Shown here: positions 34,701-59,213 of the stretch, piece after piece
Numbering within the stretch: position 1 is the stretch's first letter
How the letters are laid out: each line of letters begins with the position of its first letter
Origin: an uncultured Verrucomicrobiae bacterium
GTDB taxonomy: Bacteria; Verrucomicrobiota; Verrucomicrobiia; Limisphaerales; UBA11358
Direction: 5' to 3'
Assembly: GCA_963738225.1 (NCBI GenBank)
Contig: CAVTVR010000007.1
Span: 225,533 to 289,532, forward strand
Length of the DNA: 64,000 bases
Program-made: the position numbers and the translations under genes
Notes under the pieces: generated by a model
What the model saw: only the letters and a program-made list of their open reading frames with translations
Databases searched by the model: none
What the model was told of the DNA's origin: nothing

Positions 34701-34712
34701 TTTTCACCGTTC

Positions 34713-35441
34713 ATGGCACTGAAATCGTCAATTGAGTGGACCGAGGCAACCTGGAACCCCGTTACCGGTTGTTCCAAAATCAGTCCCGGCTGCAAGCATT
34801 GCTACGCCGAACGCATGGCGTTTCGGTTGCAGGCGATGGGCAATCCCAATTACCGCAATGGCTTCAAAGTCACGCTTCAAGATGAAATGCTCGACTTGCC
34901 GATTCGTTGGAAAAAACCGCAGACCATTTTCGTAAACTCGATGAGCGACCTGTTTCATCGCGAAGTGCCGTTGTCGTTCATCCAAAAAATATTCACTACG
35001 ATGCACCGTGCCGACTGGCATCGGTATCAGATTCTCACCAAGCGCCCGGAACGGTTGGTCGAGCTTGATGACAAGTTGGCTTGGGCGCCGCATATCTGGC
35101 AGGGCGTCACCGTCGAGCACCCGGACTATTACGACCGGATTGATTTGCTCCGCAAATCCGGCGCGCACGTCAAATTTCTGTCCCTTGAACCGTTGCTCGC
35201 GCCCATGCCCAAGTTAAAACTGCGCGGCATTGATTGGGTGATCGTCGGCGGCGAATCTGGCCCCGGCGCGCGACCGATGGCCGAGGAATGGGTGACGGAA
35301 ATTCGCGACCAGTGCCTGAAGCAAGGCGTTGCTTTTTATTTCAAGCAATGGGGCGGTGTGTTCAAAAAGCGCAATGGCCGCGACTTGGAAGGCCGCACCT
35401 GGAATGAAATGCCAGCCGTTAGTGAACTGGCTTTCGCCTGA
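34713..35441 (+). CDS. Phage Gp37/Gp68-family protein (DUF5131), three-Cys Fe-S enzyme
   Basis: [30 protein letters not shown] carries the family's signature CxxxxxxCxxC. [25 protein letters not shown] and [15 protein letters not shown] are also present. Confidence 0.85.
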
Positions 35442-35446
35442 CCGAA

Positions 35447-36203
35447 TTAACTGTCCCCCCACCATTGCCGTTCAAACATATCCCGGTCAATCCGCACCGG
35501 CTCGATGCAGTGCGGGTCATCCGTCTTGGGGCTGTTGACCAGATTGCTGACCGGATAAATCTTGAGCGGCGAGTTTTCGGGAAAAGCCATCGCCGATTTG
35601 TGCATTTCACTGCGCAGATCGTCCGTTTTCAGCCACCAGTCATAGTGCCGCGACTGGAGGATGACCGGCATCCGGTCGTGCAGTGGCGCAATCGCCTCGT
35701 TCGCCGGCTGCGTGATGATGGTAAATGATTCAATCGTCTCGCTTGGCGGCGCTTCGTCCAGATCCGTGTCGGCGTTGTCCCGCGACGGCGGCTTAACCCA
35801 CCTGTCCCACAGGCCGGCAAAATAAAATGGCTCGCCGCTTTTGAACATCACCCGGAACGATTGCCGTTTCCCGTCGCGCTCCTGCCACTCGAAAAAACTG
35901 TCGGCCGGAATCAGGCAGCGGCGGCTTTTGAACGCCTCACGAAAAGCATTTCGGCTGGCGAGCGTTTCCGACCGCGCATTGATAAGCGCGTTGCCCATGC
36001 TTTCATCTTTCGCCCAGGATGGAATCAGACCCCAGCGCATTAGCTTCACCGCCGGCTGGTGGTGTTCGTGGTAAATCACCGGAGCGAGTCTGCGTCGGCG
36101 CGATGTTGTAGCGCGGCGAAAAAAACGGCACCCGCGCCATGACGACGCCGACCAGTTTGATCAGCTCGCTAAAATCTTTCGCCGCCGTATATCGCCCGCA
36201 CAT
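35447..36203 (-). pseudogene. SOS-response-associated peptidase (SRAP/YedK, abasic-site processing protein); one frame break near 36084
   Basis: MCGRY (catalytic Cys2), RYNIAPTQ, then after the break MRWGLIPSWAKD, NARSETL and RCLIPADSFFEWQ. Confidence 0.9.
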
Positions 36204-39992: not shown

Positions 39993-42900
39993 TTGTTCAT
40001 GCACCGATGTTTTGCAAGCATTATGGCAATGGCGAGAACCGTTACATGGTTGCACCTGTCGGACCTGCATTCCTGCAAGACCAAAACGGGCTGGGACGCA
40101 GATCGCATACTGACAGCACTCCGGCGCGATTTGCAGTTAATGCGCGAAAAACACGATATACGTCCTGACCTGATCTTTTTCACTGGAGATGCGGCCTATG
40201 GACAAAAAACGGACGAGGGACTTTTCATTCAAGAACAGTTTGATGATGCCACTTTGTTTCTCGCCGAAATTTGCAGTATTTGCTCGGTGCCAACACAGAA
40301 CCTTTTCCTCGTTCCCGGCAACCACGACGTGAACAGAGAAACGTGTTCCATTTCCGCCGACTCTCTGCTGAAGGCTGACAATAAACCAAAGCAGGTGAAC
40401 CAGCTAATCAACGACTGCGGATCAGATTGGCGTGTGCAGATGTCGAGGCTCGCAGAGTATTGCAAGTTTTTACATAGCATCGGCAATGGCGACTTACTGA
40501 AGAATCCGGAGCGTCTGGTTTTTGCCACCAAACGCGATGTTAATGGAATCACAGTGGGCATAGCTGGACTAAACTCGGCATGGTCCTGTTTCGGTAATCA
40601 ACCAAAGGGGTCGCTTTGGCTTGGCGGCGAATGGCAAATTCAGGAATTGATGAAACAACTCCGGGACGCAGAGTTGAGGATTGGTTTGATACACCATCCG
40701 CCATCGTGGTTTGCGGAAGAGGAATCAACATTGTGGAAGCAGTTTCCGGCAAACTTTCATTTTCTCTTGCATGGCCATGAGCATGATGCTTGGGTCTCCA
40801 ATGTTGACCAGATGTGCCGTATCGCTGCCGGTGCTTGTTACGGTAAGTCACCAGCAGAGAGCGGTTATAGTTTTGTCCGCCTAGATTTGGACAAACCGTG
40901 CGCGGAGATATGGGTTCGGCGATACGGAGATAAAGTTGATAAATGGCTTCCGGAGCCTCACCGAAATTCTGGAGATGATGGAAAATCCACGCTCGAAACC
41001 TTGCCGTGGTTGCCTGTTTCCCAAATTGGAAATAGTAATGCTCAAGGCCCAGAAAGCCGGGGCATCTTTGGCAGAGCTGAAGAGATTAGAAAACTAAGAG
41101 CGCTCATTGATCGGAAGCGTGTCGTCACGGTCTTTGGATTGTCAGGCATCGGAAAAACAAAATTGATCGAGGAAGTTCGACGCGAGCAAATACAGCAGGG
41201 CTGCAGCAGCCACCAGATTATCCTCGGAGAGCGCCCGACATACGAGAGTCTTTTCCGCGAACTTGCGCCAGCGCTTGGATGCCATGATGAAGATCCAAAA
41301 GTGCCTGAAAAGTTATTCGACAAAATTGACTTTTCTGTTCTTAAGAAATTTGCAAAGCACGCACAGCCGACTCTGGTGTTCATTTCGAATGCACAGAAAA
41401 TATTTACTGCTGACGGCTTCCAATCGCTCGACGTAGCCGGCATGTTCAAGGCCATCATCGAATTTACGCCTCAAGCCCGTGTGATACTGGAGAGTCGTGA
41501 GCGGCCTCCGGATAACATTTTCCCGGCAGAGGTCTATGAAAGCTTTCGTGTTCGTGGGTTGACGATTGATGCAGTCCAAGAATACTTCCGACGCCCATTT
41601 GTTGAGCATCCAGAAATTGGTTGGCAACTGGCCCAAGCCGACGCCGAGGAAATTTGGCAGCGGCTTGGCGGAAGAGCGGGAAAAGGCGGAGACGGCGCGC
41701 ATCCGATGGGCATGTTCATTCTGGCCAGCGTCGCGAACGGTATGAATGAAACCCCAATGCACGCGCTTGAACGTCACCGCGAAACCGTATTTTACGAATT
41801 GGAGGAACAGCTGTTTAACGATCTTTATCTTCATGTTCTTGATCCGCGCGAACGACGATTGCTTCAGCTTGCATCAATGTATCGCCTGCCAATACCTCAC
41901 ACGCATATTGGCAGCTTGAACGCTGCTGTCGCCAGCCAAGATGCGTTCGATAAGCTCGTGCGGCGGTGTCTGCTTATGCCCGATGAGCAGTCGGAGCATT
42001 ACGAGGTGCACTCGCTAATTTCCGAATTGACGCTCCGGCAAATAGATTTCAAATCGGCTCAATTTCTTTCAGACCATGAAGCAATTGCCGATGCTTGGAT
42101 GAACCTATTCAAAACAGGGCGGCATGTTTCGAGACCATTTATTATTGCCGCAGCGGAAGCTGCATATCATCTAATTCAGGCCGAATGTCCTCATCGTCTT
42201 AAAGAATTGCAGACGCAGCTATTGGCGCGTCGACCAGACATTGTGGAATTTCTTGATGAATGGTCGAGGCGGTTACATGCAAATCGCAATTACGAGGACA
42301 ATTTGAGTGTGCTACAAGTCCTAGTCGCGATTGAACCCAGAAGCCACAAACACCACCGGTTTTTGGGTGAATCTATAGACCACCTTCGCGGCAAAGGCAC
42401 GGATGAGGCGTTTGAACACCACAATCAGGCTTTCCGCATAGCACCTGCGCGTCCTGAATACGCGGCAAATCTTGGAAGCGCGCTTGTTGCCTGCGGCAAA
42501 CCGCAAGCATTTCTGGATGCAATTTCAGAATTGTCCCCGGAGACACGAAGTCAGGCGATGAATGACGCTGTCGTGTCTGTCTATTGCACTTGTTTGGGCC
42601 GGTTGGGCCGGACAGATGAAGCATCGCAACTCCGCCAAGCTCGAATTCGTGACGGCTGCCGACATGCGCCCATTTTTTACGAGGAGATTATGTTCCAAGC
42701 GCACGCTGGTAATCATAAAGAATCTTTACGGCTGTTTGACATAGCTGAGAAAGTCGGCGCCATTGATGATCAATTGGAAGCAGCGAAGGCTGGAGTGCTT
42801 TCGAGAAAGGGAGACACGCAAGCTGCGACTGAACTCAGAAATCAGTTAATCAAGCGAAACATTCGAGTTGCTTCGGTTTATAACGACGAGGCATCCACAA

Positions 42901-44036
42901 TGCTGGCAAAGGGTCGGACTAGCGAGGCTCTTGCGATGGTTGAAAGAGCCAAAACCCTCGGTTGCTTGGACGACGCGACGGTTCTCATTCATGCGGGAAT
43001 CTTGCAGGCTGGCGGGCAATCTGACGAAGCCTCCAACCTGCGAAAAGAGCGATTGGCAGAGCCTGGACTACATGAACCCATCCTCTTCAACGCGGAAGCA
43101 GTATATCTGCGCAATTCAAAACGCTACGCAGATGCACTCACGCTTCTTGACCGCGCTGAAAAATTGCGATGCTCTAACTTGCATCTTTTAACGACAAAAG
43201 CGTCCGTATTGGAACTGATTGGGCGCGGTCCAGAAGCTTCGGCGATACGCCAAGCCGAGATACAACGGGGGGCACGCGATCCATTTCTCTATAATGAGGA
43301 AGCTGCCTACCTCTGCCACTGCGCTCGTCCCCAAGAAGCGTTGGACATTGTTGAACTGGCTGAAGCAAATCTCTGTGCCAATGATTTTACGCAAAGAATC
43401 AAAGCTGATATTCAGCAATCAGGCGGTGATACTGAACAAGCGAGCAGAATGCGTCGTGAACTGATCCAGCAAGGCACGGCGAATCCCGCTGTCTATGCGG
43501 ATGAAGCGATGGCGCTGGCCAGGAGGAAGGAATTCACAGAGGCATTCCAAATTCTACAACTTGCTGCAAAAACCGGAGCCGCGGATGACTACACTCTTAT
43601 CGCTAAAGCTACGATTCTCGATATGGCAGGGATGATGGAGGATGCTTCAAGGTTCCGACGGAAAGTTATTGATGCCGGAAGACGGAATGTCGTTTTCTAC
43701 AACGACGAGGCGGTCAACTTGCGCGATACGGGAGATCTCAATGGTGCCATTGTGCTTTTGAATAAGGCGGAACAGTTGGGCATTAGTAACGAATACAGCG
43801 CCACGATTCGAGCTAATATCCTATCGCGAATGGGTCATGCGGATGCGGCTTCCAAAATTCGTTCTGAATGGATCGCAAAGGGTTCACATCATGCGGCCTT
43901 TTATCACATGGAAGCAATCCACCTCAACGAAACGGGCCATTCAGTAGATGGTTTGGCTCTTTTGGACAAAGCAGTCAAAATGGGAATTGCAAATCGATAC
44001 ACCGAAACAATTCGACGCAAGCTGAAAGGTTCCTAG
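39993..44036 (+). CDS. Calcineurin-like metallophosphoesterase + STAND (NB-ARC-like) P-loop NTPase + long TPR array, 1347 aa
   Basis: Phosphoesterase motifs WLHLSDLH, FFTGDAAYG, LVPGNHDVN, IGLIHHPPSWF and LLHGHEHDAW. Walker A is VVTVFGLSGIGKTKLIEEV. The C-terminal ~650 aa contain about nine ~68-70-aa tandem units (..Y N/A DEA..L......EAL..L..AE.LG......I.A.IL...G...EAS..R.E.I..G). The true start may be the MAMARTV at about 40023. Confidence 0.85.
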   Translation: MFMHRCFASIMAMARTVTWLHLSDLHSCKTKTGWDADRILTALRRDLQLMREKHDIRPDLIFFTGDAAYGQKTDEGLFIQEQFDDATLFLAEICSICSVPTQNLFLVPGNHDVNRETCSISADSLLKADNKPKQVNQLINDCGSDWRVQMSRLAEYCKFLHSIGNGDLLKNPERLVFATKRDVNGITVGIAGLNSAWSCFGNQPKGSLWLGGEWQIQELMKQLRDAELRIGLIHHPPSWFAEEESTLWKQFPANFHFLLHGHEHDAWVSNVDQMCRIAAGACYGKSPAESGYSFVRLDLDKPCAEIWVRRYGDKVDKWLPEPHRNSGDDGKSTLETLPWLPVSQIGNSNAQGPESRGIFGRAEEIRKLRALIDRKRVVTVFGLSGIGKTKLIEEVRREQIQQGCSSHQIILGERPTYESLFRELAPALGCHDEDPKVPEKLFDKIDFSVLKKFAKHAQPTLVFISNAQKIFTADGFQSLDVAGMFKAIIEFTPQARVILESRERPPDNIFPAEVYESFRVRGLTIDAVQEYFRRPFVEHPEIGWQLAQADAEEIWQRLGGRAGKGGDGAHPMGMFILASVANGMNETPMHALERHRETVFYELEEQLFNDLYLHVLDPRERRLLQLASMYRLPIPHTHIGSLNAAVASQDAFDKLVRRCLLMPDEQSEHYEVHSLISELTLRQIDFKSAQFLSDHEAIADAWMNLFKTGRHVSRPFIIAAAEAAYHLIQAECPHRLKELQTQLLARRPDIVEFLDEWSRRLHANRNYEDNLSVLQVLVAIEPRSHKHHRFLGESIDHLRGKGTDEAFEHHNQAFRIAPARPEYAANLGSALVACGKPQAFLDAISELSPETRSQAMNDAVVSVYCTCLGRLGRTDEASQLRQARIRDGCRHAPIFYEEIMFQAHAGNHKESLRLFDIAEKVGAIDDQLEAAKAGVLSRKGDTQAATELRNQLIKRNIRVASVYNDEASTMLAKGRTSEALAMVERAKTLGCLDDATVLIHAGILQAGGQSDEASNLRKERLAEPGLHEPILFNAEAVYLRNSKRYADALTLLDRAEKLRCSNLHLLTTKASVLELIGRGPEASAIRQAEIQRGARDPFLYNEEAAYLCHCARPQEALDIVELAEANLCANDFTQRIKADIQQSGGDTEQASRMRRELIQQGTANPAVYADEAMALARRKEFTEAFQILQLAAKTGAADDYTLIAKATILDMAGMMEDASRFRRKVIDAGRRNVVFYNDEAVNLRDTGDLNGAIVLLNKAEQLGISNEYSATIRANILSRMGHADAASKIRSEWIAKGSHHAAFYHMEAIHLNETGHSVDGLALLDKAVKMGIANRYTETIRRKLKGS

Positions 44037-44119
44037 TGTCTGGTTATCTTCATCGTGGTTCAACTCCGTAATTCAATTCAATTCGCCTGAGCGATTGGCA
44101 CCATCGGTAGCCGGAAATT

Positions 44120-44330
44120 TACTGGCAACATTTTTGGTTGCCCGCTACGTTTCGGATTTTCCTGCCAATCCTTTTCCTAATCCGCCAGCGACGGCACGGT
44201 GACTTCCGCGTGTTTCGCATACGCCCGATGCACCGCCTTGGAGTTGTGCCCCAACGCCTGTTGCGCGAACCGCTCCGGGAATCCACATTTGAAATTACGG
44301 CAAAAAACACGGTTCGCGTCTTCAGCCTTT
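44120..44330 (-). pseudogene. Tyrosine-integrase 3' remnant (copy 1)
   Basis: It encodes ...CGFPERFAQQALGHNSKAVHRAYAKHAEVTVPSLAD..., the C-terminal LGH...Y segment of phage-type integrases. No upstream catalytic domain is present. Confidence 0.6.
44153..44265. repeat. 113-bp direct repeat, copy 1 (pairs with 45737-45849)
   Basis: CGGATTTTCCTGCCAATCCTTTTCC.AATCCGC.AGCGA.GGCACGGTGACTTCCGCGTGTTTCGCATACGCCCGATGCAC.GCCT..GAGTTGTG.CCCAACGCCTGTTGCG. I count about 7 mismatches between the copies by eye. Weaker similarity extends about 35 nt further left. Confidence 0.85.
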
Positions 44331-45578
44331 GTTTGATCTAGCCGAACGTAACTTTCCCACACCTTCAACCTTATCCTCGACATTCGCGCGTGGCAATGCC
44401 TCGCGACCGAGAACCGCAAGCAATCGTTTTCGGAGAAGATCCTTGAGGTGCGATATGTTTCGATAGTCGGGGACGTTGTGAACTGATAAATCAAAGTGTA
44501 GCTTTGTGCCTTCCTTTCGATACAGAATAGGTCGCTTGCCTAGCGAATGAGCATAGCCAATTTCATAATACACGTTCGGTCGCTCGCCAGTAAGATCAGC
44601 AATCAAAAACTCGGATTCTCTAATCTGCTTCAAAATTAAGTCAGTAATCCGATCTTGATGCTCCACATCGTCTGCGCGTAAAGCGTGGATTCCGAATTCT
44701 GTGCATACCTCTTTAATCGCATTGGAAATATCGTCCAGTTCCGGGTGGGCCTTGTCCATCCACATCATAATAAAGGCTGTGTTTGGCACACTGCGTATTT
44801 CCGAGGTTCCCTTTTGCATATTGTCTTTTCTAAACGGAGCCTGCCGCAGCATTTTCATGGCTTGCGAGGCGAGGTCAGCCGAAACCCTCTTAAGCTGTCC
44901 ATGTAATTGAGCATAGTCTTGGACATGTCGTGTGCGGTTCAGCACATCGCGAGGCGAAACACACATTGACCGGACAATATTGAGTGGAGCGTCCCCTTCC
45001 AACTCAAATCCCAGGGCAGTCGCAAAGCGACTTGCCATCGCGGCAAACTCCCCTTCGGAATATGGTGCCATCTCCTCAATTATCTCGAAACTAGACATGA
45101 AGGCAGTAGGGATTCGCTCTGTGCGCGTTGCCGTCGCGATGACTGTAAACCGTGGGAGATTAAGTGTAACTATTCGAGCTTTAGGCCCTCTGTCAATGGT
45201 GATGCTCACCTTAAAATCCTTCATCGCTTGAGCGAGGAACTCCGCTAGGCTCTTGTCGAGCATATGAACGTCTTCAATCAGAAGAAAATCACCCTCTTCA
45301 AACGAGGTGAGCACCCCAAGAAAATCACCCATGTCTTCTGACGCCAGGCCGTTCGTTTGCAGAACTCTGGCTTTCATGTGTTGCGATACAATCTTAGCCA
45401 AAGTGGACTTGCCCGAGTCAGGCTGCCCAACAAGAAGTATGTGGCCCAATGTTTCGCCTCTGCGCTGGGCACCCTTGATAGCGACTTCGAGCCGAGCCTT
45501 GAGCCTTTCCTGGCCAATAAAGTCTTCCAGCGTCTGCGGGACAGTTTTTTCCGATTCAGATAATTTTGTATCGTTCAT
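44322..45578 (-). CDS. RuvB-like AAA+ ATPase fused to a C-terminal nucleoside 2-deoxyribosyltransferase/TIR-like (flavodoxin-fold) domain
   Basis: RuvB-like N-terminal region: [66 protein letters not shown] and [17 protein letters not shown]-terminal region: TAFIMMWMD...[30 protein letters not shown]. Confidence 0.8.
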
Positions 45579-45736
45579 GGCTTTGTCTAGTTGATGCGAA
45601 TTTATTGCTGGTGGTCAAGGCTATTTTGACACCAAAACTCAATCGCAGTTGCCTATCAATCTCAATTTGATTGCGTGATAGCAATAGATGATGACCGGAA
45701 AACCACCGGCAGCAATTTGGGTTGTGCGCTGCGTTG

Positions 45737-45849
45737 CGGATTTTCCTGCCAATCCTTTTCCCAATCCGCGAGCGATGGCACGGTGACTTCCGCGTGTTTC
45801 GCATACGCCCGATGCACGGCCTTTGAGTTGTGGCCCAACGCCTGTTGCG
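45737..45849. repeat. 113-bp direct repeat, copy 2 (second integrase 3' remnant)
   Basis: See copy 1. It encodes QQALGHNSKAVHRAYAKHAEVTVPSLADWEKDWQENP on the minus strand, with no integrase body upstream. Confidence 0.85.
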
Positions 45850-46100
45850 TAATCTATGTGGTAGCCGTGGATGATTTCCTTTTTGTAAGTCCCAACCATT
45901 TGCATTGCGGTCAATCCCGCCAGTTCTAATTTTGACCCAGGAGGCACAATCTTTGCCTGCTTCTTTAGCAACTGTTCAAATTCAAAAAACAAGTTTTCTA
46001 TTTCACCATAAGTGAACTGGGTAGGAACATTTGGTTTCTCTGCAATAAAAGATAATTACTCCAAAGTATTTTGTTGCAGTTGATTCTTCTGTTCAGTTTT

Positions 46101-47153
46101 TCACACGACGAATGCAACGCTATATTTTGCGCGCGTTACTGCCACATATAATTTATTGCGATCTCCCGCTTTGTCAATGTTAAATGATACAAGATACTCC
46201 TTCATTGGTTTCGTTGGAAATATCAAAACCCTCTCGTATGTTCTACCCTTTGCCGCGCCTATATTGATAGCTGGCAATTGCAGCGTGTTAGCGCTTTTGT
46301 TCCATCGAAGCACCGTTGGATTGTGGTCAGCCACGTATTTGCCAACATCGGCCGCTTTAATTTGGAAAACACCATCATGTCCTGTGACCTTCGTATTCAT
46401 TGATTTAGTTTTCCCGTATTCAGGAAATAACTTGTCAGCAAAATCGCATATTTGCTGATTGCACCGGTAACAATCATTTTTTTCTTCCATTACGATTAGC
46501 CCGGACTTTGCATGTTGAGCAAACCATTCGATGACTGCACTCTTTTTATATTGTTTGTTTTTCCCAGAATTATTAGTGCTGAAAGTTCCCTGCCGTGGGT
46601 CACCTACCGCTGTTACTGATATGGATGAATGAAAAAGCCGTTCGAGAATGTTGAGATCATAGCCCGCCAAATCTTGAACCTCATCAATAAAAATATCGTT
46701 ATACACTTTTTGAAGCCTATTAAGGACTAGACCACCAGATATTTCCTCACACGAGCATACAAATTCTGATACTCGATCTCGATAAATATTGTTCGCAGCA
46801 GTCAAATAATACTTGTCGGCATTTTTCTTTGGAGTGTATCGGTTCCAATCTGCGAGTTCTTCAAAGAGGATAGAATTAACCCGGCGATTATCCGACGTTA
46901 CGCAAGCCTGATATGGTCGGATGCCGTCTTGCAAAAGAAAGCTGAACCATGAAAGCAAGGTGATATGAACTGGAATACATCCGCACCGCGCAGTTATGAA
47001 ATCCCTAATCTGGTCAAGATTCTCGTTTGTGTATGTCGTTATCAGCACCCGGCGTGCGGTCAATTTTACCGCCGTCTCAACTACTAGAGTTGTTTTCCTT
47101 GATCCAGCACTCGCAACCACAACCCTATTTTTAGTTGATAGCGGCTTGGACAT
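46101..47153 (-). CDS. gajB: UvrD-like SF1 helicase, Gabija GajB-like
   Basis: VVVASAGSRKTT (Walker A), IFIDEVQDLAGYD (motif II), VGDPRQGTF (motif III), AAKGRTYERVLIFP and LYVAVTRAKYSVAFV (motif VI). It lies immediately downstream of an OLD-family gene. Confidence 0.75.
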   Translation of the reverse strand: MSKPLSTKNRVVVASAGSRKTTLVVETAVKLTARRVLITTYTNENLDQIRDFITARCGCIPVHITLLSWFSFLLQDGIRPYQACVTSDNRRVNSILFEELADWNRYTPKKNADKYYLTAANNIYRDRVSEFVCSCEEISGGLVLNRLQKVYNDIFIDEVQDLAGYDLNILERLFHSSISVTAVGDPRQGTFSTNNSGKNKQYKKSAVIEWFAQHAKSGLIVMEEKNDCYRCNQQICDFADKLFPEYGKTKSMNTKVTGHDGVFQIKAADVGKYVADHNPTVLRWNKSANTLQLPAINIGAAKGRTYERVLIFPTKPMKEYLVSFNIDKAGDRNKLYVAVTRAKYSVAFVV

Positions 47154-48735
47154 ATTGCGGGAAAGTAACTCTTTCTTTTGTTTCAAAAAGGATCAGTGCG
47201 CTTTCAGTTTTGTTCTCAACCATAAAAGCACTCATCTCCGCCGGTGTTTTGCAGGCTGTTCCCATGACTTTATTTAAGACTTTCAAGTCGTTTACAGCCA
47301 CTATTTGCGGCTCCAAGGTGGGAAGCAAATCGTTGTTATCAGCATAAATCTTGATCGTGCCGATTCCAGCATAAGGCGCGTATTTCTTCACAATCTTGTT
47401 TTGGTAATCACCATCGTTATCAGTCACAACGGCCACGTCGTTTGAAAGCTCCTTGGCAATATCAAGGAAACGTGTGAAGGATAGGCCACGGACATTTACG
47501 ACATCTACCCCAGCCTCGATTGGCAACTTGCCGTATTTAACCAAAAAGGCTTTCTGTATTATCAGTTCATCAGATGGCCCTTCAACCAAGATGACTTTCT
47601 TTGCCAAAATCAGACGCAACGTGTCATAACCAGACAACCGCTTGAAATATGACTGCGTATCTTTGGGCAGGTGTTTTAGGACAGAGTGTTTTGTATCATG
47701 CAAGAAAATCACTTTATCAATGCCTAATTTGTTTAGGACGTAGGCACTGTGCGTCACGATCACAATCTGCTTTCCAGCGCACTTTTCCCGAATTTTATTT
47801 ATCAGCATACTCATCGAAGAATATGAGAGGTGGTTTTCGGGTTCCTCGATAAGAATGATGTTTGCTTCCTTTGCCTGACGTTCGAGCGCCAACATGATTT
47901 TCAAGGCACTTTGTTCACCTTTGCCAATAAATTGAAATGGTAATTCGTCTAAATGCGGAGTGAGGGCATTTTCCCAATTAGTCTTTTGAGAGGTGTCGAT
48001 TGAAATCGCCAGCTTCTTACTGGTGATCGCGCCTTGTTTTTGTGTGAGCTTGGCATTGATGCCAACGATGGCTGCTTCCGCAGAAAACTGCTCTTTCAGT
48101 TTTCGGTAGGCGATGGCGAGAGAAACCTTTTCTTTAGCATCAAGGCTGCCATTGATAATCTCCTGCAAGAAATAATCTGTGCCGCTTTGCAAACGAATCG
48201 TCGTTGCGTCTATGTTCGATACTGCTATTGGGAGACTTCGCGATGTAATGGCGTGATTTGCAAACGAATACCAGGTTGATTTGTAGTATTCGGTCGGGAT
48301 CGTTTTAATTTGCGCCCTGTTTTCGAGCAGCTTCGTGTATTCCTCAGCATATTCGTCATCAAACGCAATAATCAATTTAAGCCCGACACAATCCGTCTTT
48401 TGCGAGTTGTTATTGCCGCGAAGCCGCTCCAATTCCGCAGATTCTTTCAAATATAATTCAATCAGGATTTCTGGCGGCAACGGATTTTTATCAGCCACAA
48501 CTTCTTTCAAATAACTATCTACGCATGTCTTGTTGAACAAGTGCGACGTAATCTCATAGTCAATTACCTTGCCGTTGATTCGCTTCGTTAGGGCCAAAGC
48601 GATAGCTTCAATGATCGTTGATTTTCCAGCCTCATTGTTGCCTACAATGATATTGAGATCATCATTGAGTGATAATGTTAAAGATTGAAAAATCTTAAAG
48701 TTTTTTATGTAAATCTGGTTTATCATAGTCATCAC
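47131..48735 (-). CDS. gajA: OLD-family ABC-ATPase + TOPRIM nuclease, Gabija GajA-like
   Basis: IKNFKIFQSLTLSLNDDLNIIVGNNEAGKSTIIEAIALAL (Walker A), ILIEEPENHLSY (Walker B / D-loop), and the C-terminal TOPRIM KVILVEGPSDELIIQ...AVVTDNDGD. Confidence 0.85.
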   Translation of the reverse strand: MMTMINQIYIKNFKIFQSLTLSLNDDLNIIVGNNEAGKSTIIEAIALALTKRINGKVIDYEITSHLFNKTCVDSYLKEVVADKNPLPPEILIELYLKESAELERLRGNNNSQKTDCVGLKLIIAFDDEYAEEYTKLLENRAQIKTIPTEYYKSTWYSFANHAITSRSLPIAVSNIDATTIRLQSGTDYFLQEIINGSLDAKEKVSLAIAYRKLKEQFSAEAAIVGINAKLTQKQGAITSKKLAISIDTSQKTNWENALTPHLDELPFQFIGKGEQSALKIMLALERQAKEANIILIEEPENHLSYSSMSMLINKIREKCAGKQIVIVTHSAYVLNKLGIDKVIFLHDTKHSVLKHLPKDTQSYFKRLSGYDTLRLILAKKVILVEGPSDELIIQKAFLVKYGKLPIEAGVDVVNVRGLSFTRFLDIAKELSNDVAVVTDNDGDYQNKIVKKYAPYAGIGTIKIYADNNDLLPTLEPQIVAVNDLKVLNKVMGTACKTPAEMSAFMVENKTESALILFETKERVTFPQYVQAAIN

Positions 48736-49283: not shown

Positions 49284-49436
49284 CTGCTGGTATGATGACA
49301 ACCCCGTTCGGATTCCAGAACCAGCCGCTATTACCCCGCCAGCGTGCGCCCAGCACTACTGCCGGCGGTAACTACCGGCAAAATCTACCACAACCGGGAT
49401 TTTCCGGTAGCAGGAGTGGCGGCTGATTCTGGCACC

Positions 49437-50732
49437 ATGAATGACCAACCACACATCACCATCGGCGAGCGGCACGGCTGGGGCGACCCCCAGCCCTTTG
49501 GCATTGCCACCATTGACGAGCGCCAGCACATCTACATCATCGGCAAGACCGGATCAGGAAAAACGACGTTGCTGCGAAATATGATTTTGCAGCACATCGC
49601 TCTTGGCCACGGGGTTGGCGTCATTGACCCACATGGAGACTTGGCCGAGGAATTGTTGAATCACATTCCGCCCAAGCGGGCGGATCATCTGGTGTATTTC
49701 AATCCGGGCGACCTGGAATTCCCCATCGGATTGAACGTCATCGGCCATGTGGCACCGGATGCCCGGCACCTGGCCGCTTCCGGCATTGTGAGCGCGTTTA
49801 AGGCCATCTGGCGTGATTCCTGGGGACCACGGCTTGAATACATCCTCTACAGCGCCGTTTCTGCCTTGCTCGAATGCCGGAACCAGACCCTTTTGGGCGT
49901 GAACCGCCTTTTGGTTGATGATGACTACCGCGCCAAAATAATTCGGCAAGTCAAAGACCCGTTCATCCGGGCATTTTGGGCGGAGGAATACGAGAATTAC
50001 GACGACCGTTTCAAACGCGAGGCCATCGCCCCGATTCAAAACAAGCTTGGCCAGTTCCTGTTGAATCCGGTGATACGAAACATATTGGGGCAGATCAAAA
50101 AGAAGGTGGATATTCCCTTCGTCATGGACAATGGACGATTGTTCATCGCCAATCTGTCCAAAGGCCAGCTTGGACATGACAAGGCGAATTTGCTCGGTTC
50201 ACTGTTGGTGACACAGTTTCAATTGGGCGCGATGGCCCGGTCAAACCGGCCGGAATCCGAACGGCGCGACTTTTATTTGTTCATAGACGAATTCCAGAAC
50301 TTCTCGACGGATGCTTTCGCCTCGATTCTGGCGGAAGCCCGCAAGTATCGGCTCTGTCTCACGTTGTCGCATCAATACATTGACCAGCTTCCGCTCCCCA
50401 TCCGGCAGGCGGTATTCGGCAACGTGGGAACGCTCATTGCGTTCCGCATCGGCTACACGGACGCCGAGGTGATGGCAAAAGAGTTTGGCAACACTATCCC
50501 CGCCATTGCCATTGCCGATCTTGAGCGGTATGAAGCCGTCGTAAAGCTGCTTGTGGACAGTTCCAACCTTGAGCCGTTCCGGGCGAAAATGTTGCCGCCC
50601 CTTGAAAACCGTATTGGCCGGAAAGACAAGCTGATTGCTCTGTCTCGCGAACGATTTGCCATGCCGCGAAGTTTGATCGAGGACAAACTAAAGCGGTGGA
50701 TGAGCAGGGCCAAATTGCAGGATGACGGGTAG
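49437..50732 (+). CDS. Type IV coupling-protein-like ATPase (TraD/VirD4/TraG-D_C type, no N-terminal TM segment)
   Basis: HIYIIGKTGSGKTTLLRNMI (Walker A), VGVIDPHGDLAEELL, and FYLFIDEFQNFSTDAFASILAEARKYRLCLTLSHQYIDQL (Walker B plus a TraG-D_C-like segment). Start taken at MNDQPHITIGER. Confidence 0.75.
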   Translation: MNDQPHITIGERHGWGDPQPFGIATIDERQHIYIIGKTGSGKTTLLRNMILQHIALGHGVGVIDPHGDLAEELLNHIPPKRADHLVYFNPGDLEFPIGLNVIGHVAPDARHLAASGIVSAFKAIWRDSWGPRLEYILYSAVSALLECRNQTLLGVNRLLVDDDYRAKIIRQVKDPFIRAFWAEEYENYDDRFKREAIAPIQNKLGQFLLNPVIRNILGQIKKKVDIPFVMDNGRLFIANLSKGQLGHDKANLLGSLLVTQFQLGAMARSNRPESERRDFYLFIDEFQNFSTDAFASILAEARKYRLCLTLSHQYIDQLPLPIRQAVFGNVGTLIAFRIGYTDAEVMAKEFGNTIPAIAIADLERYEAVVKLLVDSSNLEPFRAKMLPPLENRIGRKDKLIALSRERFAMPRSLIEDKLKRWMSRAKLQDDG

Positions 50733-50752
50733 CAAACTTGCCAGAATTGGCT
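50727..50752 (-). promoter_or_regulatory. Copy 4 of the TTGCCA-N5-TGGC motif (reverse orientation, degenerate C-run)
   Basis: GGGTAGCAAACTTGCCAGAATTGGCT spans the T4CP-like stop codon. Confidence 0.4.
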
Positions 50753-50850
50753 AATCCACTCCCCTACATCGTTTCTTCCGCTCGCGGCAATCTGCAAGGA
50801 TGCCAAACAAACGATCTCCCCGTTTCATACGGGCTTCCACAGTTGCCGCG

Positions 50851-51703
50851 ATGCAGCTTACAAAACGCGACCGCGAGATTATTCGGCTTGTCCACCGTCA
50901 CCAGTTCTTACGCTCACATCAGATTGTCGCCTTGCTTGCAGGGAGTTCACAACAGGTGTTGCGGACGGCTAAAAATGCTCTACCATCACGGATATTTGGA
51001 ACGGCCACGCGCCCAGCTTGAATACTACGAGCGCGGCGGCGCACGCCCGATGGTCTATGGCTTGAGCAACAAAGGCGGAAAACTTTTGGAACAAGAGCTT
51101 GGCATCACTGGTTCGTGGAACAAACACAATCAGGACATTGGCCGGATGTTCCTTGAACACGCAATCCTTGTTTCCGACGTGATGGTGTCCATTGAACTCG
51201 CCTGTCGAAAATCTGGCAACATCCGATTGCTATACGAAGACCAGCTTGCACTTCAATCAGAACGAAGTCAGTTCCAATGGCAAGTGAAGGTTCACGATCA
51301 CGGGGTAACGCTTGGCGTTGTTCCCGACCGCGTGTTCGCATTGGAATACGCGGATCATGCCGGAGCAATGCAGCGAGTATATTTTTTCCTTGAGGCCGAC
51401 CGGGGAACCATGCCGGTTGTGCGAAGCGGATTAACACAAACATCTTTTTACCGGAAACTTCTCGCATACGAGGCCACATGGACGCAAAAAATCCATCAGC
51501 GAAAACTTGGCATCCATCGCTTCCGTGTGCTGACCGTCACCACGAACGCCATGCGTGTCACCACGCTTCTTGACGCCTGTTCCCGGTTGAAGCGTGGCCA
51601 TGGGCTGTTTCTCTTTGCTGACCAGACGGTCTTGGAAAAAGACCCGTTCTCCACTGTCTGGCAGTGCGGCAAATCTGCCAAAGTATCGGCTCTGCTGGAC
51701 TAG
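50851..51703 (+). pseudogene. Replication-relaxation family protein (Replic_Relax); one frame break near 50965
   Basis: MQLTKRDREIIRLVHRHQFLRSHQIVALLAGSSQQVL joins RLKMLYHHGYLERPRAQLEYYERGG...VPDRVFALEY...VYFFLEADRGTMP when one base is skipped. This is the typical family pattern. Confidence 0.75.
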
Positions 51704-51704
51704 C

Positions 51705-51742
51705 CAGAAGCAGATGCTCCTTTCATGAAGGATGTTATGCCA
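51705..51742 (+). repeat. 38-bp dispersed repeat, copy 1 (diverged)
   Basis: CAGAAGCAGATGCTCCTTTCATGAAGGATGTTATGCCA lies directly after the Replic_Relax stop. Confidence 0.8.
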
Positions 51743-51792
51743 CGTTTTGAGAAGTCTATCCCCCAATACCCATTCTAGTATCATAACATAGA

Positions 51793-52194
51793 ATGTGGTA
51801 TGATTACATCATGCTGGTTTCAATGAGTGCAAAAACTATTGTTATTCACATTTCCCGCGGATTGGCCTATGCCACTTTCCCAATCGGAGCATTTTTATTC
51901 TCACTTTTTGTGCTTACAGCTTCAGAGCATAGTTTAGATTTCTCGACATTCGCGAATGTTTTATTGAATATCTCTGCTATTTTCCTCTTTTTTATTCCGC
52001 CAATCATCATTCTTTTCCTTCATCCAGTCTCGAAGCATTCAAATGCAGGCATCCAGCAAAGCACAGATCAAGCACGGGTTGCAAAAATCGAAAAATACCT
52101 TCCGCACGTCTTTATTATCATAATCTTAGCGGGAATTGGGGTTGTTGCATTCTTTCTTTCGGTGATTTTTATGGGAGCGGTGTCCGGTGCGTAG
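51793..52194 (+). CDS. Small membrane protein (about 4 TM helices)
   Basis: Hydrophobic segments (FPIGAFLFSLFVLTA, ISAIFLFFIPPIIILFL, VFIIIILAGIGVVAFFLSVIFMGAV). AT-rich. Confidence 0.45.
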   Translation: MWYDYIMLVSMSAKTIVIHISRGLAYATFPIGAFLFSLFVLTASEHSLDFSTFANVLLNISAIFLFFIPPIIILFLHPVSKHSNAGIQQSTDQARVAKIEKYLPHVFIIIILAGIGVVAFFLSVIFMGAVSGA

Positions 52195-52214
52195 AGTCAA
52201 AATTATTATCAATG

Positions 52215-54212
52215 CTATGGCTGATTTGCCAAGCGGAAGAACTGTTTTGCTGAATAGACTCCATTTGTGACTATGTATCCTAAATTCACGATGGCCGGAA
52301 CGTTCGTCAATGTCACCCAAGAATTTGGATCGGAAAGGTTGGTGGTAATTTGCAGGTTAAAAGCCTGCGCCGAAACCGGCCACGACAAAACCAAATTATC
52401 GCCGCTGGCCTTCGCCCGCAACTCCGGTGGTGTTGGAATGGTGAAAGTCAGATTTTCCACCATCACCTGTGCGTTGGTCGAGGTGCCGCCGACGATGCCA
52501 ATAAAAAATTCGTTCGTTTGTCCAGCGAATACTGAAACATCAATTGGCCCGCTGCTGAAAACGATGTTCGTTTCAATTTCATTTCCAGGTAAAAACAAAA
52601 AATTCGTGCCATTCAACGCTGCTGCCAACGAATCACTTTGCCAGTCACCTTCAATCATGTAATCGAATGACATCGAAACGGCTTTCGCCGGAACTACTAA
52701 TTGCGCCCACGCATACGTTGGGGTGTTGGTAGCATTTTCATCCTTCGGGTTGCCGAGCGGATGCACACTGGATTGTAACATGGGCAAGTTAGACGAACCG
52801 GTGTAAAGATTAATTAGCCATTCAACTGTATTTGCATCCCATATTGCCTGGCCAAGCACTGTTCCGTTGGCGATGACAGTGTTTTCAGCAAATTGAGCGA
52901 CTGAATTGCCAAATCCTCCGCGAAACTCCTGAAATCGTTGGCCAAGCAAATTTGTTCCATAATCCCAAGTCGTCACCATCAGATTCCATTGCGAATTGGT
53001 GTAGGCTTGCATATAAACCGACCCTGCTTTCGGCGCTTGCGAGAACCATCCGCCCGTTTCAAATGACCACCGAAAGCCCATTAACGACGCTCCATCATCC
53101 TGAATCGTCTCTTCATACCACGGCATCGGATAGCCGTGAAATGCCCCCAAATCATTTAACCAACTTTCCGGGCTTGAGGCATTCGCTGGAAATCCGTTTG
53201 TCAAAATGACGTTTGCCGCACCGGATTGCAGCAAGCCAAAAGCCGAAACATAATTATCCGCCCACTCAAATTGTTTTGGTAGCGCATGATAATATGGTGA
53301 AGATGTCAAAAGATTGGCGTTCGCATCCGCCAGCGCCTCCAAGTCCTGCGAATGCAAAGTGAAATTTTTATCCGCGCCAACTTCCGCTTCATCAAACAAC
53401 GTCATTTGCATATTTGCTGGCGGCCACGGCGTTGGAGAAACAACTTCATTCGCAAAATTTGCCCCTTGCAAATAATTCGCGGTGTAAGCGTTCACCAATG
53501 TTCCAAAACTATGGCCGATGAAATGAATCGGCTGGGAATAATTCGGCCCTAATGCGTTCAAGAATGCTTGCCCCAACAAGATTCCTTGATATGGGGTTTG
53601 GCTGCCCGCTTGTTTTGGATCAGTAAGCGAGGATGTTGCTGCGTTTGTCCAATTCCAAGCAACAATGTTTGCGCTGGTGATACCATTGGAGCGCAATTGC
53701 GCCGCTATGTCCGTTGGCCAGCCAACAACACCGCCATTTGGAATTACCGACCCAATCAAAGGCAAAGTTGGTATCCAGCCGTGCGTCAGAACGATGGTCA
53801 TTTGGTTGGGATCAATCGAAGCGAGATTTGCCGTGAAAATTCCGCCGTGATACGCCATGAGTTGCGACGGTGGCGGTGGCGAAATCAAATATACTGGAGT
53901 GCTTTCAGCGGTTGTTGGCGTGCGACTCGTTGAAATGATGTTCAACACCGGCGCGTCGAGAAACTGGTAATAATAACTCACCGTCGGGCTGTATTGCAGC
54001 TTCAGGATGTCGTTGCCCGGCCACTCGTAATACTGGTAGCTGACAATCGGCGACACGATGCCGCCGTTGGTCAAGGCTGCGCTGCTGAAATTCTCCGGGT
54101 ATTGATAGCTAACAATCGGCGACATGATGTTCGTGATTATGTTATCAGCTTTGGCCGGCAACAACGACAGAAGCAGTGTCGTGAGAACCCCCATAAGCCA
54201 GAAAGATTTCAT
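52215..54212 (-). CDS. Secreted alpha/beta-hydrolase (lipase-like) protein with a C-terminal beta-rich domain
   Basis: Signal peptide MKSFWLMGVLTTLLLSLLPAKA. IVLTHGW and the nucleophile elbow HFIGHSFGT (GxSxG). An N-terminal SPIVSYQY duplication. Confidence 0.65.
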   Translation of the reverse strand: MKSFWLMGVLTTLLLSLLPAKADNIITNIMSPIVSYQYPENFSSAALTNGGIVSPIVSYQYYEWPGNDILKLQYSPTVSYYYQFLDAPVLNIISTSRTPTTAESTPVYLISPPPPSQLMAYHGGIFTANLASIDPNQMTIVLTHGWIPTLPLIGSVIPNGGVVGWPTDIAAQLRSNGITSANIVAWNWTNAATSSLTDPKQAGSQTPYQGILLGQAFLNALGPNYSQPIHFIGHSFGTLVNAYTANYLQGANFANEVVSPTPWPPANMQMTLFDEAEVGADKNFTLHSQDLEALADANANLLTSSPYYHALPKQFEWADNYVSAFGLLQSGAANVILTNGFPANASSPESWLNDLGAFHGYPMPWYEETIQDDGASLMGFRWSFETGGWFSQAPKAGSVYMQAYTNSQWNLMVTTWDYGTNLLGQRFQEFRGGFGNSVAQFAENTVIANGTVLGQAIWDANTVEWLINLYTGSSNLPMLQSSVHPLGNPKDENATNTPTYAWAQLVVPAKAVSMSFDYMIEGDWQSDSLAAALNGTNFLFLPGNEIETNIVFSSGPIDVSVFAGQTNEFFIGIVGGTSTNAQVMVENLTFTIPTPPELRAKASGDNLVLSWPVSAQAFNLQITTNLSDPNSWVTLTNVPAIVNLGYIVTNGVYSAKQFFRLANQP

Positions 54213-54221
54213 AACACGTGG

Positions 54222-55364
54222 TTAATTTGAAGTTGTTGCCGTGGCATAGATGAGACCGCCTCCGCGCGGGATGACGATGGAAATGGTGGCCGTGCTGGTT
54301 GCCAGCGTGCCGGTGGTGTTGTAGCCCGTGGCGCTGACCATCGCGCCGTTTGCCGGCTTCACGCTCACGGTGATTTGCGAGTTCAAAGGCAGGTTCGCGC
54401 AATTCACGACAATGGGAATGGGATTATTTTGCTGTGCGGAAAGGTTGGCATCCGGTGTGAACAACGCGCCCGTGGGCGACGCAGAAATAACAACTCCGCC
54501 AACGCTCGCGACAGTCAATTGAGGAATCTGGCCAACTGATGGAGTGATAACAAACTGCGATCCTTGAGTGAAATTGCCTCCAATATTCCCAGCAAACGGA
54601 ACATCGTAGGCGTCAAATCGAACTCGGCCCTCGCCACTGTATTGTGCTGCTGTCGTGAGGACATTCCCTGATCCAATTATTCGAGAGGCAACGATACGGA
54701 TTGCGCCTCCGCTCCCGCTGCCACTACCTCCGCTGCCCCACACTCCGAGCTTACCACTTCCTCCGTTGGCATATATCGCACCAGCGATGTTGACCATGTT
54801 TGACGCAGCAATGAGAATTGCGCCACCACCACCCCCGCCTCCCACACTGTTTGCAACACCAGCTCCTCCTGAGCCTCCAAGCAGAGGAATTAAGAAGATG
54901 TTCCCATAAGGGTTGGGACTCCAATTTTGTTCCGGCGATCCATAGTTCCCACCCGCGTAGCCATTAGCAAATCCACCACCAGGACCTTGGCCATCGGTTG
55001 GTTTTGAAGCCCCATCTGGACCATTTCCACCCCGCCAACCGCCCGGACCTCCCAATCCTCCTTGCGATCCCAGGAAGGTTTGCCCCGACACATCCACCGT
55101 TCCATTGATTACGACATTACTTTGCACAAGCCAAATCACTGGCGAGTTGTTCGCGTTCGGAACGAACGTCACGGTTACGCTGCTGGGAATGTTGACAGAT
55201 GTGTATTGGTAAATGCCGTTCGGATGGCTGGCCATGTTGATGACGGTATTCACCGTAGGATTGAACGCGCCATCACTGCCATTGCTGCCGGTGTTGACCT
55301 GTGCCAGGCAAACCGTCGGCAACGATGCAATTGCCAACAAAATCAGTCCAGTGATTGTTTTCAT
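54222..55364 (-). CDS. Secreted Gly-rich beta-helix-like protein, paralogue A
   Basis: A signal peptide, the shared N-terminus QVNTGSNGSDGAFNPTVNTVINMASHPNGIYQYTSVNIPSSVTVTFVPNANNSPVIWLVQSNVVI, and GGSGG runs. Confidence 0.65.
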   Translation of the reverse strand: MKTITGLILLAIASLPTVCLAQVNTGSNGSDGAFNPTVNTVINMASHPNGIYQYTSVNIPSSVTVTFVPNANNSPVIWLVQSNVVINGTVDVSGQTFLGSQGGLGGPGGWRGGNGPDGASKPTDGQGPGGGFANGYAGGNYGSPEQNWSPNPYGNIFLIPLLGGSGGAGVANSVGGGGGGGAILIAASNMVNIAGAIYANGGSGKLGVWGSGGSGSGSGGAIRIVASRIIGSGNVLTTAAQYSGEGRVRFDAYDVPFAGNIGGNFTQGSQFVITPSVGQIPQLTVASVGGVVISASPTGALFTPDANLSAQQNNPIPIVVNCANLPLNSQITVSVKPANGAMVSATGYNTTGTLATSTATISIVIPRGGGLIYATATTSN

Positions 55365-55376
55365 ACGAGGTTTTTG

Positions 55377-56558: not shown

Positions 56559-56619
56559 AGGCTTACTTTTATGATGCCTCCATTGCTATCCTCATTTGGC
56601 ATTAAATGCGAGCGGAAAA

Positions 56620-56877: not shown

Positions 56878-56970
56878 TGTGCCGCAACAATCGGTGCAGC
56901 CCGGCACGAATGCAAGCAGAAAATACCAGCATGTTGCTGGTGTAAGCATTAAGCTGGTATTGCCAATCTT

Positions 56971-57383: not shown

Positions 57384-57397
57384 ACTTGAAAACTCGC

Positions 57398-59207: not shown

Positions 59208-59213
59208 CAGTGG

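Follow-up and report, generated by a model that had tools for sequence, protein, structure and literature searches.

A decayed RuvB-like ATPase core fused to a nucleoside deoxyribosyltransferase-like domain: a candidate single-gene conflict protein on a mobile element of an uncultured Verrucomicrobiae bacterium

Introduction

In type II retrons (Retron-Eco1/Ec86, Sen2), anti-phage toxicity resides in a domain of the nucleoside 2-deoxyribosyltransferase (NDT) superfamily, which is kept in check by the state of assembly (PMC7736814; bioRxiv 10.1101/2023.08.16.553469). The Ec86 effector is reported to deplete adenine derivatives, and an active site spanning the NDT dimer has been pointed out for it (bioRxiv 10.1101/2023.08.16.553469). 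Thoeris type VIII ThsI joins a predicted CMP-hydrolase effector to TPR (bioRxiv 10.64898/2025.12.03.692087), and the DUF4062 protein Swarozyc is a TIR-like NADase (bioRxiv 10.64898/2026.05.01.722283). Single-chain sensor-effector proteins with a nucleotide-hydrolase effector are, as such, already known. Here we describe a gene of an uncultured Verrucomicrobiae bacterium (assembly GCA_963738225.1) whose product joins an NDT-like domain to the ATPase core of RuvB. It lies in a stretch of 64,000 nucleotides, called the window below (contig CAVTVR010000007.1, positions 225,533 to 289,532), as a complete open reading frame (ORF) of 418 codons with an ATG start, at 44322..45578 on the minus strand. 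The ORF listing of the window, Pfam, homologue searches, phmmer against the Protein Data Bank (PDB) and AlphaFold2 (AF2) models define its layout: a RuvB-like ATPase core, a linker, an NDT/DNPH1-like domain and a basic tail. What is new is the decayed RuvB core in the place of a putative regulator, together with an effector subfamily that is very conserved and has no name so far.

Like the type II retrons, the fusion has an NDT-superfamily domain as its predicted effector; here, an AAA+ core on the same polypeptide would act as regulator. No reverse transcriptase ORF occurs among the neighbouring genes, no PADLOC retron model matched, and msr/msd RNA is likewise absent, a window-wide Rfam scan at gathering thresholds having returned a tRNA-Val alone. 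With ThsI, the Cap12/Pycsar TIR proteins and Swarozyc, the fusion shares the pairing of a sensor or ligand-binding module with a hydrolase of the TIR/NDT superfamily for which depletion of NAD+ or nucleotides has been either predicted or shown. It differs from all of these in having no adjacent signal-producing TIR, cyclase, CD-NTase or ThsB gene (its neighbours are Gabija and a STAND protein, and no cyclase or TIR partner was found at the homologue loci), and from ThsI and Cap12-type effectors in its N-terminal module, which is RuvB-like and not TPR, SAVED or STING. DUF4062 (PF13271) had no Pfam match in the fusion protein at E ≤ 1. A search of PADLOC-DB 2.0 (2023) gave no full-length match to any system protein, merely a domain-level match to a TIR effector and a weak P-loop match to mad8 (8e-5). 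A preliminary description of the gene, made from the sequence alone, knew of no described system with this fusion, and we too found a RuvB core fused to an NDT/TIR-like domain neither in PADLOC 2.0 nor in the full-text literature, subscription journals lying outside the search.

Results

The N-terminal half of the protein is built like the ATPase core of RuvB. RuvB_N (PF05496) matches residues 14-169 with E=7e-42, and the generic AAA family matches as well. This large AAA+ domain (45072..45539; all parts of the protein are on the minus strand), also recognised by Foldseek, includes the presensor-1 beta-hairpin and the sensor-1 residue T151. The small, or lid, AAA+ domain follows at residues 173-245 (44844..45062) and carries the sensor-2 residue Arg210 together with Arg215; AAA_lid_4 (PF17864) matches residues 173-244 below its cut-off (E=1.3e-4), and Foldseek confirmed the RuvB lid fold. 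Residues 13-246 align with RuvB chains of the PDB at E=~1e-41 (phmmer), and the AF2 model, with a mean confidence (pLDDT) of 85, superimposes on RuvB structures with a root-mean-square deviation of 1.2-2.0 Å over ~233 residues at 31-38% identity. The RuvB-type motifs read in the preliminary description are all in place: the FIGQE lead-in (residues 20-30), Walker A (51-59), LLIEDVH (99-105), ATATRT (148-153) and the lid segment (208-223). Compared with RuvB (PDB 7pbl, 8efv, 1hqc, 9dx3), the FxGQ lead-in, the P-loop Lys, the presensor-1 hairpin and the sensor-1 Thr are kept. After the P-loop, the stretch best kept with respect to canonical RuvB is residues 131-152 (presensor-1 hairpin/LPRFT), with a conservation of 0.56-0.58 vs 0.35 overall.

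What is missing is the head. The RuvB head, or winged-helix, domain carries much of the DNA contact of RuvB; the corresponding family RuvB_C (PF05491) had no Pfam match in the protein even at E ≤ 1. Past residue 246, a linker of low model confidence (residues 246-263, 44790..44843; pLDDT <50 at 248-260) and an NDT-like fold take its place. The proposal that a RuvB ATPase core had exchanged its head for an NDT/TIR-like module is thereby borne out by Pfam, by Foldseek and by the absence of PF05491.

To compare the catalytic motifs, we aligned 24 fusion proteins, 14 proteins in which a RuvB-like core is fused to an HNH nuclease (RuvB-HNH) and 15 canonical RuvB. The P-loop Lys, Lys57 in our protein, is kept in every sequence aligned. 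The Ser or Thr that follows this Lys ligates Mg2+; it is Thr in all 15 canonical RuvB, whereas the fusions have Ser (9/24) or Ala (15/24) and RuvB-HNH proteins Ala (10), Ser (2), Thr (1) or Asp (1). The Walker B pair reads D-E in canonical RuvB (15/15) and in 13 of 14 RuvB-HNH proteins (E-E in one), vs E-D in 22 of the 24 fusions, the other two having E-E and E-N. At the arginine-finger position, Arg is found in 15/15 canonical RuvB and 3/14 RuvB-HNH proteins; every fusion (24/24) has S, G or C there. The finger motif of canonical RuvB is R-D-R, the importance of which is illustrated by the T. maritima RuvB R170A structure among our Foldseek matches. The sensor-2 Arg, present in all 15 canonical RuvB, is retained in 15/24 fusions (C, S or N in nine) and in none of the 14 RuvB-HNH proteins. 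New invariant arginines have appeared instead, R155 in the fusion clade and R215 in the fusion and RuvB-HNH clades.

The Walker A of our 418-residue protein is GQPDSGKS (residues 51-58, 45405..45428), with GKS after the P-loop, and the sensor-2 R210 is retained; its Walker B-like LLIEDVH (residues 99-105, 45264..45284) has E-D, and M-S-S (residues 161-163, 45090..45098) stands where RuvB has R-D-R, as seen both in the phmmer alignments to PDB and in the motif alignment. The preliminary description had noticed that Walker A and Walker B deviate. The deviation is real; taken there merely as divergence from housekeeping RuvB, it belongs to a decay that runs through the whole family.

These residues bear on the idea that the protein is a RuvB-style motor or a sensor of branched DNA, which found no support: Walker B is altered and the arginine finger absent in 24/24 fusions, GKA replaces the usual sequence in 15/24, sensor 2 varies and the head domain is gone. 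Judged from the aligned residues, the RuvB-like module probably binds a nucleotide and may oligomerise, while activity as a ring-coupled translocase appears unlikely, which removes the basis for the branched-DNA-sensor reading. Binding of DNA or RuvA by the core is still conceivable.

The closest relatives of the ATPase half are the RuvB-HNH fusions (e.g. P0076, P0263-P0272), at 44-49% identity vs 35-40% to canonical RuvB. A phylogeny against RuvB, suggested at the outset, was obtained by neighbour joining with bootstrap over 231 ATPase columns. The fusions form one clade (100/100) and, together with RuvB-HNH, are separated from canonical RuvB (100/100), support that may be inflated because the canonical sample is narrow (73% mutual identity); RuvB-HNH proteins alone are not monophyletic (5/100). 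Both groups share the derived states L161, S162 and R215, have lost the head and carry an effector-type domain in its stead. They differ in that RuvB-HNH proteins end in an HNH nuclease, have mostly D-E in Walker B, keep a finger Arg in three of 14 cases and, at two loci, have housekeeping surroundings. Two further observations concern these sisters: loci L070 and L071 have a conserved ORF of 174 residues downstream, and some of the proteins bear N-terminal zinc-ribbon/Sel1 domains or an FtsK-gamma domain. Another apparent exchange of effectors, RuvB-like plus Fic/Doc in P0274 (27-kb contig), was rejected, because a remnant without the P-loop region continues here by read-through into a Doc-like ORF (HPFIDGNKR); it looks like a decayed RuvB-like copy next to a toxin-antitoxin gene.

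The NCBIfam RuvB equivalogs NF000868 and TIGR00635 match residues 8-245 of our protein below their cut-offs, with 191.9 vs 282 bits and 178.2 vs 299 bits, and neither ruvA nor ruvC was found in the window or at five homologue loci. Against RuvB proper, the fusion thus differs by the absent head and arginine finger, the swapped Walker B, a separate clade and a neighbourhood without ruvA/ruvC. Head, intact motifs, an equivalog-level score and ruvA/ruvC association are all lacking, and the 418-residue protein is not a RuvB. Several fusion proteins are named 'Holliday junction DNA helicase RuvB' or 'RuvABC resolvasome subunit' by the Joint Genome Institute (JGI). Since the head domain is missing and the motifs are degenerate, we regard this naming as systematic mis-annotation.

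The C-terminal domain (residues 264-392, 44403..44789) is a Rossmann-like fold of the NDT/DNPH1/CMP-hydrolase type, related to TIR. Nuc_deoxyrib_tr (PF05014, clan Nribosyltransf) matches residues 303-360 with E=2.7e-5 and 24.7 bits vs a gathering score of 28.8; among 121 relatives, 113 match it at E ≤ 1e-3 (best E 2.2e-7). The same number, 113/121, match the CBASS-type PADLOC model 'Effector TIR' (PDLC00733), which in our protein covers residues 265-380 with E=2.7e-13. Matches to Cap12 are weak, both for the Pfam family CAP12-PCTIR_TIR (E 0.05, 14 bits vs a cut-off of 24.7) and for Cap12 in the PDB by profile search (E=0.17). For an AF2 model of residues 258-418 (pLDDT 84), the top 36 PDB matches in Foldseek are all NDT or DNPH1/Rcl (E 4e-5 to 4e-4), led by Trypanosoma NDT, human DNPH1, rat Rcl and bacterial NDTs with TM 0.5-0.63; C. 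elegans TIR-1 ranks 37th (the PDB matches extending to 6e-4). In BFVD the best match is to a CMP/hydroxymethyl-CMP hydrolase (3e-7); among the other leading ones are a Cap12/Pycsar-TIR protein (6e-6) and numerous phage NDTs. The structural check recommended earlier has thus placed the domain with NDT, DNPH1 and CMP hydrolases, TIR being more distant.

At the sequence level, phmmer of the domain against PDB sequences gave only noise and one weak MilB match, so that a profile (A5) was built from 24 trimmed domains. The motif quoted in the preliminary description is present at residues 326-352, and in the alignment of the profile to DNPH1 the segment with the conserved Glu is paired with DVVVAEVTQPSLGVGYELGRAV. 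Glu339 (44562..44564, in YYEIGYA) is invariant in the family and pairs with the Glu of GVGYELG in human DNPH1, whose number, Glu104, follows from its distance to the D80A/D80N substitutions. Glu104 is the covalent nucleophile of DNPH1; in this superfamily the nucleophilic Glu comes after beta-4, as [YF]-E-x-G. A possible counterpart of Asp80, the second catalytic acid of DNPH1, is the near-invariant D313, two positions away from the residue that aligns with it. The sequence E-values of this alignment are weak (0.015-0.06), and the NDT/DNPH1 assignment rests for this reason on fold, motif and profile jointly. From the alignment, Glu339 is likely to be the catalytic residue, the same Glu that had been singled out beforehand. 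With the NDT hydrolases (DNPH1/Rcl, nucleoside 2-deoxyribosyltransferases, MilB/CMP-hmCMP) the domain shares the motif D-x(2)-G-x(5,6)-[YF]-E-x-G-x-A. It differs from them in its low identity (12-20%), in scoring under the Pfam gathering threshold and in many family-specific invariant residues. Its fold and its catalytic motif place the domain in the NDT/TIR superfamily, but in none of the curated families. The protein ends in a variable basic tail (residues 393-418, 44325..44402), which differs even from that of a 93%-identical relative (L079).

About 27 full-length homologues of the fusion (n=~27, 51-98% identity) were found, all metagenomic. They come from independent metagenomes, and the fusion is therefore neither a one-off nor an assembly chimera. 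Scanning metagenome contigs with an N-terminal profile added at least one further close relative, L079, on a 2-kb contig. Mean pairwise identity within the family is 83% for the effector, 56% for the ATPase and 45% for the lid. A scan of 185,579 species-representative genomes did not find the RuvB fusion, nor is it present on IMG/VR viral contigs. Neither the PLSDB plasmids nor any of the complete E. coli genomes had a megablast match to 43800-46200. In a search of sequencing runs, partial k-mer sharing was seen in DNA metagenomes of soil, peat and permafrost alone, and in no RNA runs.

The effector itself is far more widespread than the fusion. Hundreds of proteins, 200-400 residues long and with other N-termini, match the last ~130 residues of the fusion protein at 60-80% identity. 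Phmmer over 1.84 billion cluster representatives recovered 271 clusters at E ≤ 1e-30, 2,770 at 1e-10 and 17,394 at 1e-3 (clusters counted at 50% identity), and the domain is almost always C-terminal in multidomain proteins, a further difference from the NDT hydrolases. BLASTP clustering of 165 N-terminal regions distinguished at least nine unrelated families, plus singletons, joined to the same effector. Just two kinds of N-terminus could be recognised: the RuvB-like core (32 of 121 members) and a Lon substrate-binding domain (three members). In the latter (P0072, P0087, P0113), LON_substr_bdg (PF02190, E=1.6e-40) is fused to the NDT-like domain without the Lon ATPase or protease. A Pfam scan of the seven other N-terminal families revealed nothing significant. 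The species-representative genomes contained 61 loci with the C-terminal domain alone, in Verrucomicrobiota, Acidobacteriota, Planctomycetota, Gemmatimonadota, Nitrospirota, a few others and two archaea, and IMG/VR two near-identical viral contigs that bear it.

Comparison with homologue loci delimits the gene sharply. A cassette of ~1.33 kb (44300..45633, minus strand) coincides exactly with the extent of an 84.6% match to L074/L075, while the 93% homology to L079 spans 44392-45656; the flanks of the cassette are unrelated. The earlier proposal of a stand-alone cassette on a mobile element agrees well with these edges and flanks, and the cassette moreover lies inside a defence island. It is bracketed by 155-nt direct repeats that are 89% identical and share an exact core of 39 nt, where none is expected by chance. 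The upstream copy (45695..45849, minus strand), found by repeat search, is the 3' end of a tyrosine-recombinase gene without the gene body and contains QQALGHNSKAVHRAYAKHAEVTVPSLADWEKDW; the downstream copy (44111..44265, minus strand) contains KCGFPERFAQQALGH, and its homology to recombinase extends up to ~44300, abutting the cassette end. At L075:85-1107, a near-complete recombinase gene runs into the cassette and ends '…ALGHNSKAVH' just before the catalytic Tyr. The recombinase 3' ends bracketing the cassette, together with the L075 recombinase broken off at it, point to the 3' end of an integrase gene as the site at which the cassette may move or recombine. An integrase partition of the SSV type was also considered for the flanking repeats and dropped, both flanking pieces being C-terminal fragments.

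The gene stands between the Gabija pair GajAB and a large STAND protein. Directly upstream, PADLOC identified complete GajB (46101-47186, E=1e-117) and GajA (47131-48735, E=9e-208) on the minus strand, overlapping by 56 nt. On the other side (39993-44036, plus strand), a calcineurin-like phosphoesterase (Metallophos)-nSTAND6-TPR protein of 1347 residues resembles PDC-S60 (PADLOC, E=2.7e-34). Its gene runs convergently to the one studied here and has no counterpart at the homologue loci, so that it probably represents a separate defence gene.

Homologue loci show a similar setting in part. L001 is surrounded by a PLD-helicase, PDC-S19, two ParB genes, a serine recombinase and an integrase-like gene, and L007 by a type IIG restriction-modification (RM) system, HEC-01A/B, AbiD and a UvrD-like helicase. 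The examination of homologue neighbourhoods called for by the preliminary description therefore yielded no ruvA/ruvC, recombinases nearby and, for L001 and L007, defence islands. When the neighbouring ORFs of five homologue loci were compared by tblastn with each other and with the window, no conserved partner gene emerged; the sole match was between the integrase-like gene of L001 and an integrase of the window.

Further cargo of defence type lies at 26143-36079: Mrr_cat/NA-iREase1 (26143-27159), DUF1848 (28039-28992), pieces of a split MmeI/Eco57I-type methylase (29041-31152), a ResIII helicase (31381-33762), DUF5131 (34713-35441) and SRAP (35447-36079, minus strand). The type IIG RM gene in this run appears broken into several ORFs. 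A serine recombinase is also found in the low-GC region of the window. The span 49344-62719 holds mobility and establishment genes of the element, namely a TrwB/TraD-like, T4CP-like coupling protein (49344-50732), a relaxase-like Replic_Relax protein (50738-51703), a peptide deformylase (57425-57952, minus strand), a DnaG-type primase (59201-60367) and the anti-restriction protein ArdC (61865-62719); three large ORFs at 52215-56558 (minus strand) had no Pfam match. At the other end of the window lie a DUF1559/N-methyl protein (772-1590), which hints at a host akin to Planctomycetota or Verrucomicrobiota, and a divergent tyrosine integrase (9698-11038, minus strand; Phage_integrase E=1.3e-8) adjoining tRNA-Val(GAC) (11101-11175, minus strand). 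This integrase is the one matched at L001 (46% identity). Next to it come housekeeping genes (11.7-17.9 kb), and the integrase is therefore probably the mark of another element or of a decayed one. GC content is 0.55-0.59 in these genes (uxaE, uxaC, dxs) vs 0.42-0.51 around the studied gene.

Discussion

Immune proteins of the sensor-effector type usually combine an N-terminus that varies with a catalytic module that stays constant under strong constraint, and it is by this analogy that the fusion is best understood. We believe, with a confidence somewhat above even, that it is a stand-alone conflict protein made of one polypeptide, most likely acting in anti-phage defence or abortive infection, and carried as cargo of an integrative mobile element; the role is inferred from architecture and setting. 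The RuvB-derived core, which retains a P-loop and the RuvB fold but seems to lack what processive, ring-coupled ATP hydrolysis requires, would then be a nucleotide-binding scaffold for assembly and sensing and not a branch-migration motor.

Active sites of the NDT family span dimers, and classic NDTs are trimers of dimers. As NDT sites form across dimers, a six-fold AAA+ ring is a natural platform on which to assemble or to separate six glycosidase domains. A plausible course of events can be drawn from this. At rest, the glycosidase domains would be held apart or inactive. A trigger, be it a phage protein, a DNA-protein complex or a nucleotide, would cause the RuvB-like ring to oligomerise, and ring assembly would bring the NDT-like domains into the dimer or trimer-of-dimers arrangement required for activity. 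The predicted reaction is hydrolysis of the N-glycosidic bond in NAD+ or in (d)NMP/(d)NTP; the loss of nucleotides would starve replication of the invader and possibly of the host.

Several observations weigh against this interpretation. Pfam matches of the effector to NDT and TIR stay under curated thresholds, and the structural matches are moderate (TM ~0.55-0.63). Two of the five independent longer contexts (L002, L004) hold no recognisable defence genes beyond small toxin-antitoxin-like ones. The two RuvB-HNH loci looked at (L070:7001-7927 and L072:7001-8128; proteins P0264 and P0267) sit among housekeeping genes, so the RuvB-like module is not intrinsically a marker of conflict. Loss of the ATPase was read off an alignment: one of the invariant residues R155 and R215 could have taken over as arginine finger at a new position, and a Walker B of E-D could permit slow hydrolysis. 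Finally, the narrow RuvB sample may have inflated the clade support for a separate ATPase group.

Alternatively, the protein might be an integrated decoy or guard, in which the RuvB-like core (and the Lon N-terminal domain in sister proteins) is a catalytically dead copy of some host protein targeted or exploited by phages. Plant NLR receptors contain integrated decoys. A phage anti-RuvAB or anti-Lon factor, or RuvA-Holliday-junction complexes arising from phage recombination, would then switch the glycosidase on. Such an origin would agree with the loss of catalytic residues while the RuvB fold is kept at 31-38% identity, and with the presence of a second housekeeping-derived module, the Lon substrate-binding domain, on the same effector. 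It would also agree with the conservation of residues 131-152, in the presensor-1 hairpin region where RuvB contacts domain III of RuvA. This conservation is, however, modest and extends to residues of the structural core; for most of the other N-terminal families a housekeeping origin could not be recognised, and RuvB-HNH sisters share the decay yet sit in housekeeping contexts. We consider the decoy unlikely, if worth bearing in mind. By analogy, the NDT-like glycosidase might even be the shared executioner of integrated-decoy receptors, baiting leading to ring assembly and this to hydrolysis of nucleotides or NAD+, to which we would likewise give only a small chance.

The gene may instead serve the element that carries it, as an addiction or exclusion toxin, or as an anti-defence enzyme that helps the element to establish by destroying nucleotide immune signals (cyclic ADP-ribose-type, cyclic oligonucleotides) or NAD-derived messengers. 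NDT/TIR-like folds do act on ADP-ribose-type molecules, the gene is always a compact cassette beside recombinase genes (in the window, at L001 and at L074/L075), and the same element carries anti-restriction ArdC. The gene is nevertheless placed in the defence-cargo part, adjoining Gabija and ~17 kb from ArdC, and has no conserved antitoxin-like partner. Unlike typical anti-defence genes, its effector domain is found on just two IMG/VR contigs and the fusion on none. A role of this kind seems to us quite unlikely.

We think it very unlikely that the enzyme is directed at DNA, its ring being loaded on DNA and its NDT-like domain removing (modified) bases from invading DNA or sanitising modified dNMPs at recombination intermediates, like DNPH1 with 5-hydroxymethyl-dUMP. 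The RuvB ancestry of the module would suit this, as would the DNA-acting domains of sister proteins (HNH and, once, FtsK-gamma) and the action of DNPH1 and CMP/hmCMP hydrolases, according to the names of matched PDB and BFVD entries, on modified pyrimidine nucleotides. Yet the protein has neither a head domain nor intact motor residues, and the same effector occurs on many N-termini without a DNA-binding signature. No NDT-family enzyme is known to act on polymeric DNA.

Despite its strong RuvB_N similarity and the JGI labels of its homologues, the protein can hardly be a housekeeping RuvB paralogue working with RuvA/RuvC in recombination repair, given scores under both NCBIfam equivalog cut-offs, no head, no arginine finger, E-D in Walker B, no ruvA/ruvC synteny, no fusion in the representative genomes scanned and a position in a low-GC island.

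If the function of a stand-alone conflict protein is confirmed, the fusion would be a new single-gene immune device that uses a repurposed, enzymatically decayed DNA-repair ATPase as its sensor. It would also provide a test case for housekeeping-derived decoy domains in bacteria, as in plant NLRs. Finally, confirmation would give a name and an activity to a large NDT/DNPH1-like effector family that comprises hundreds of 50%-identity clusters, mostly from soil Verrucomicrobiota, Acidobacteriota and Planctomycetota, and that is now annotated as 'hypothetical' or, wrongly, as 'RuvB'.

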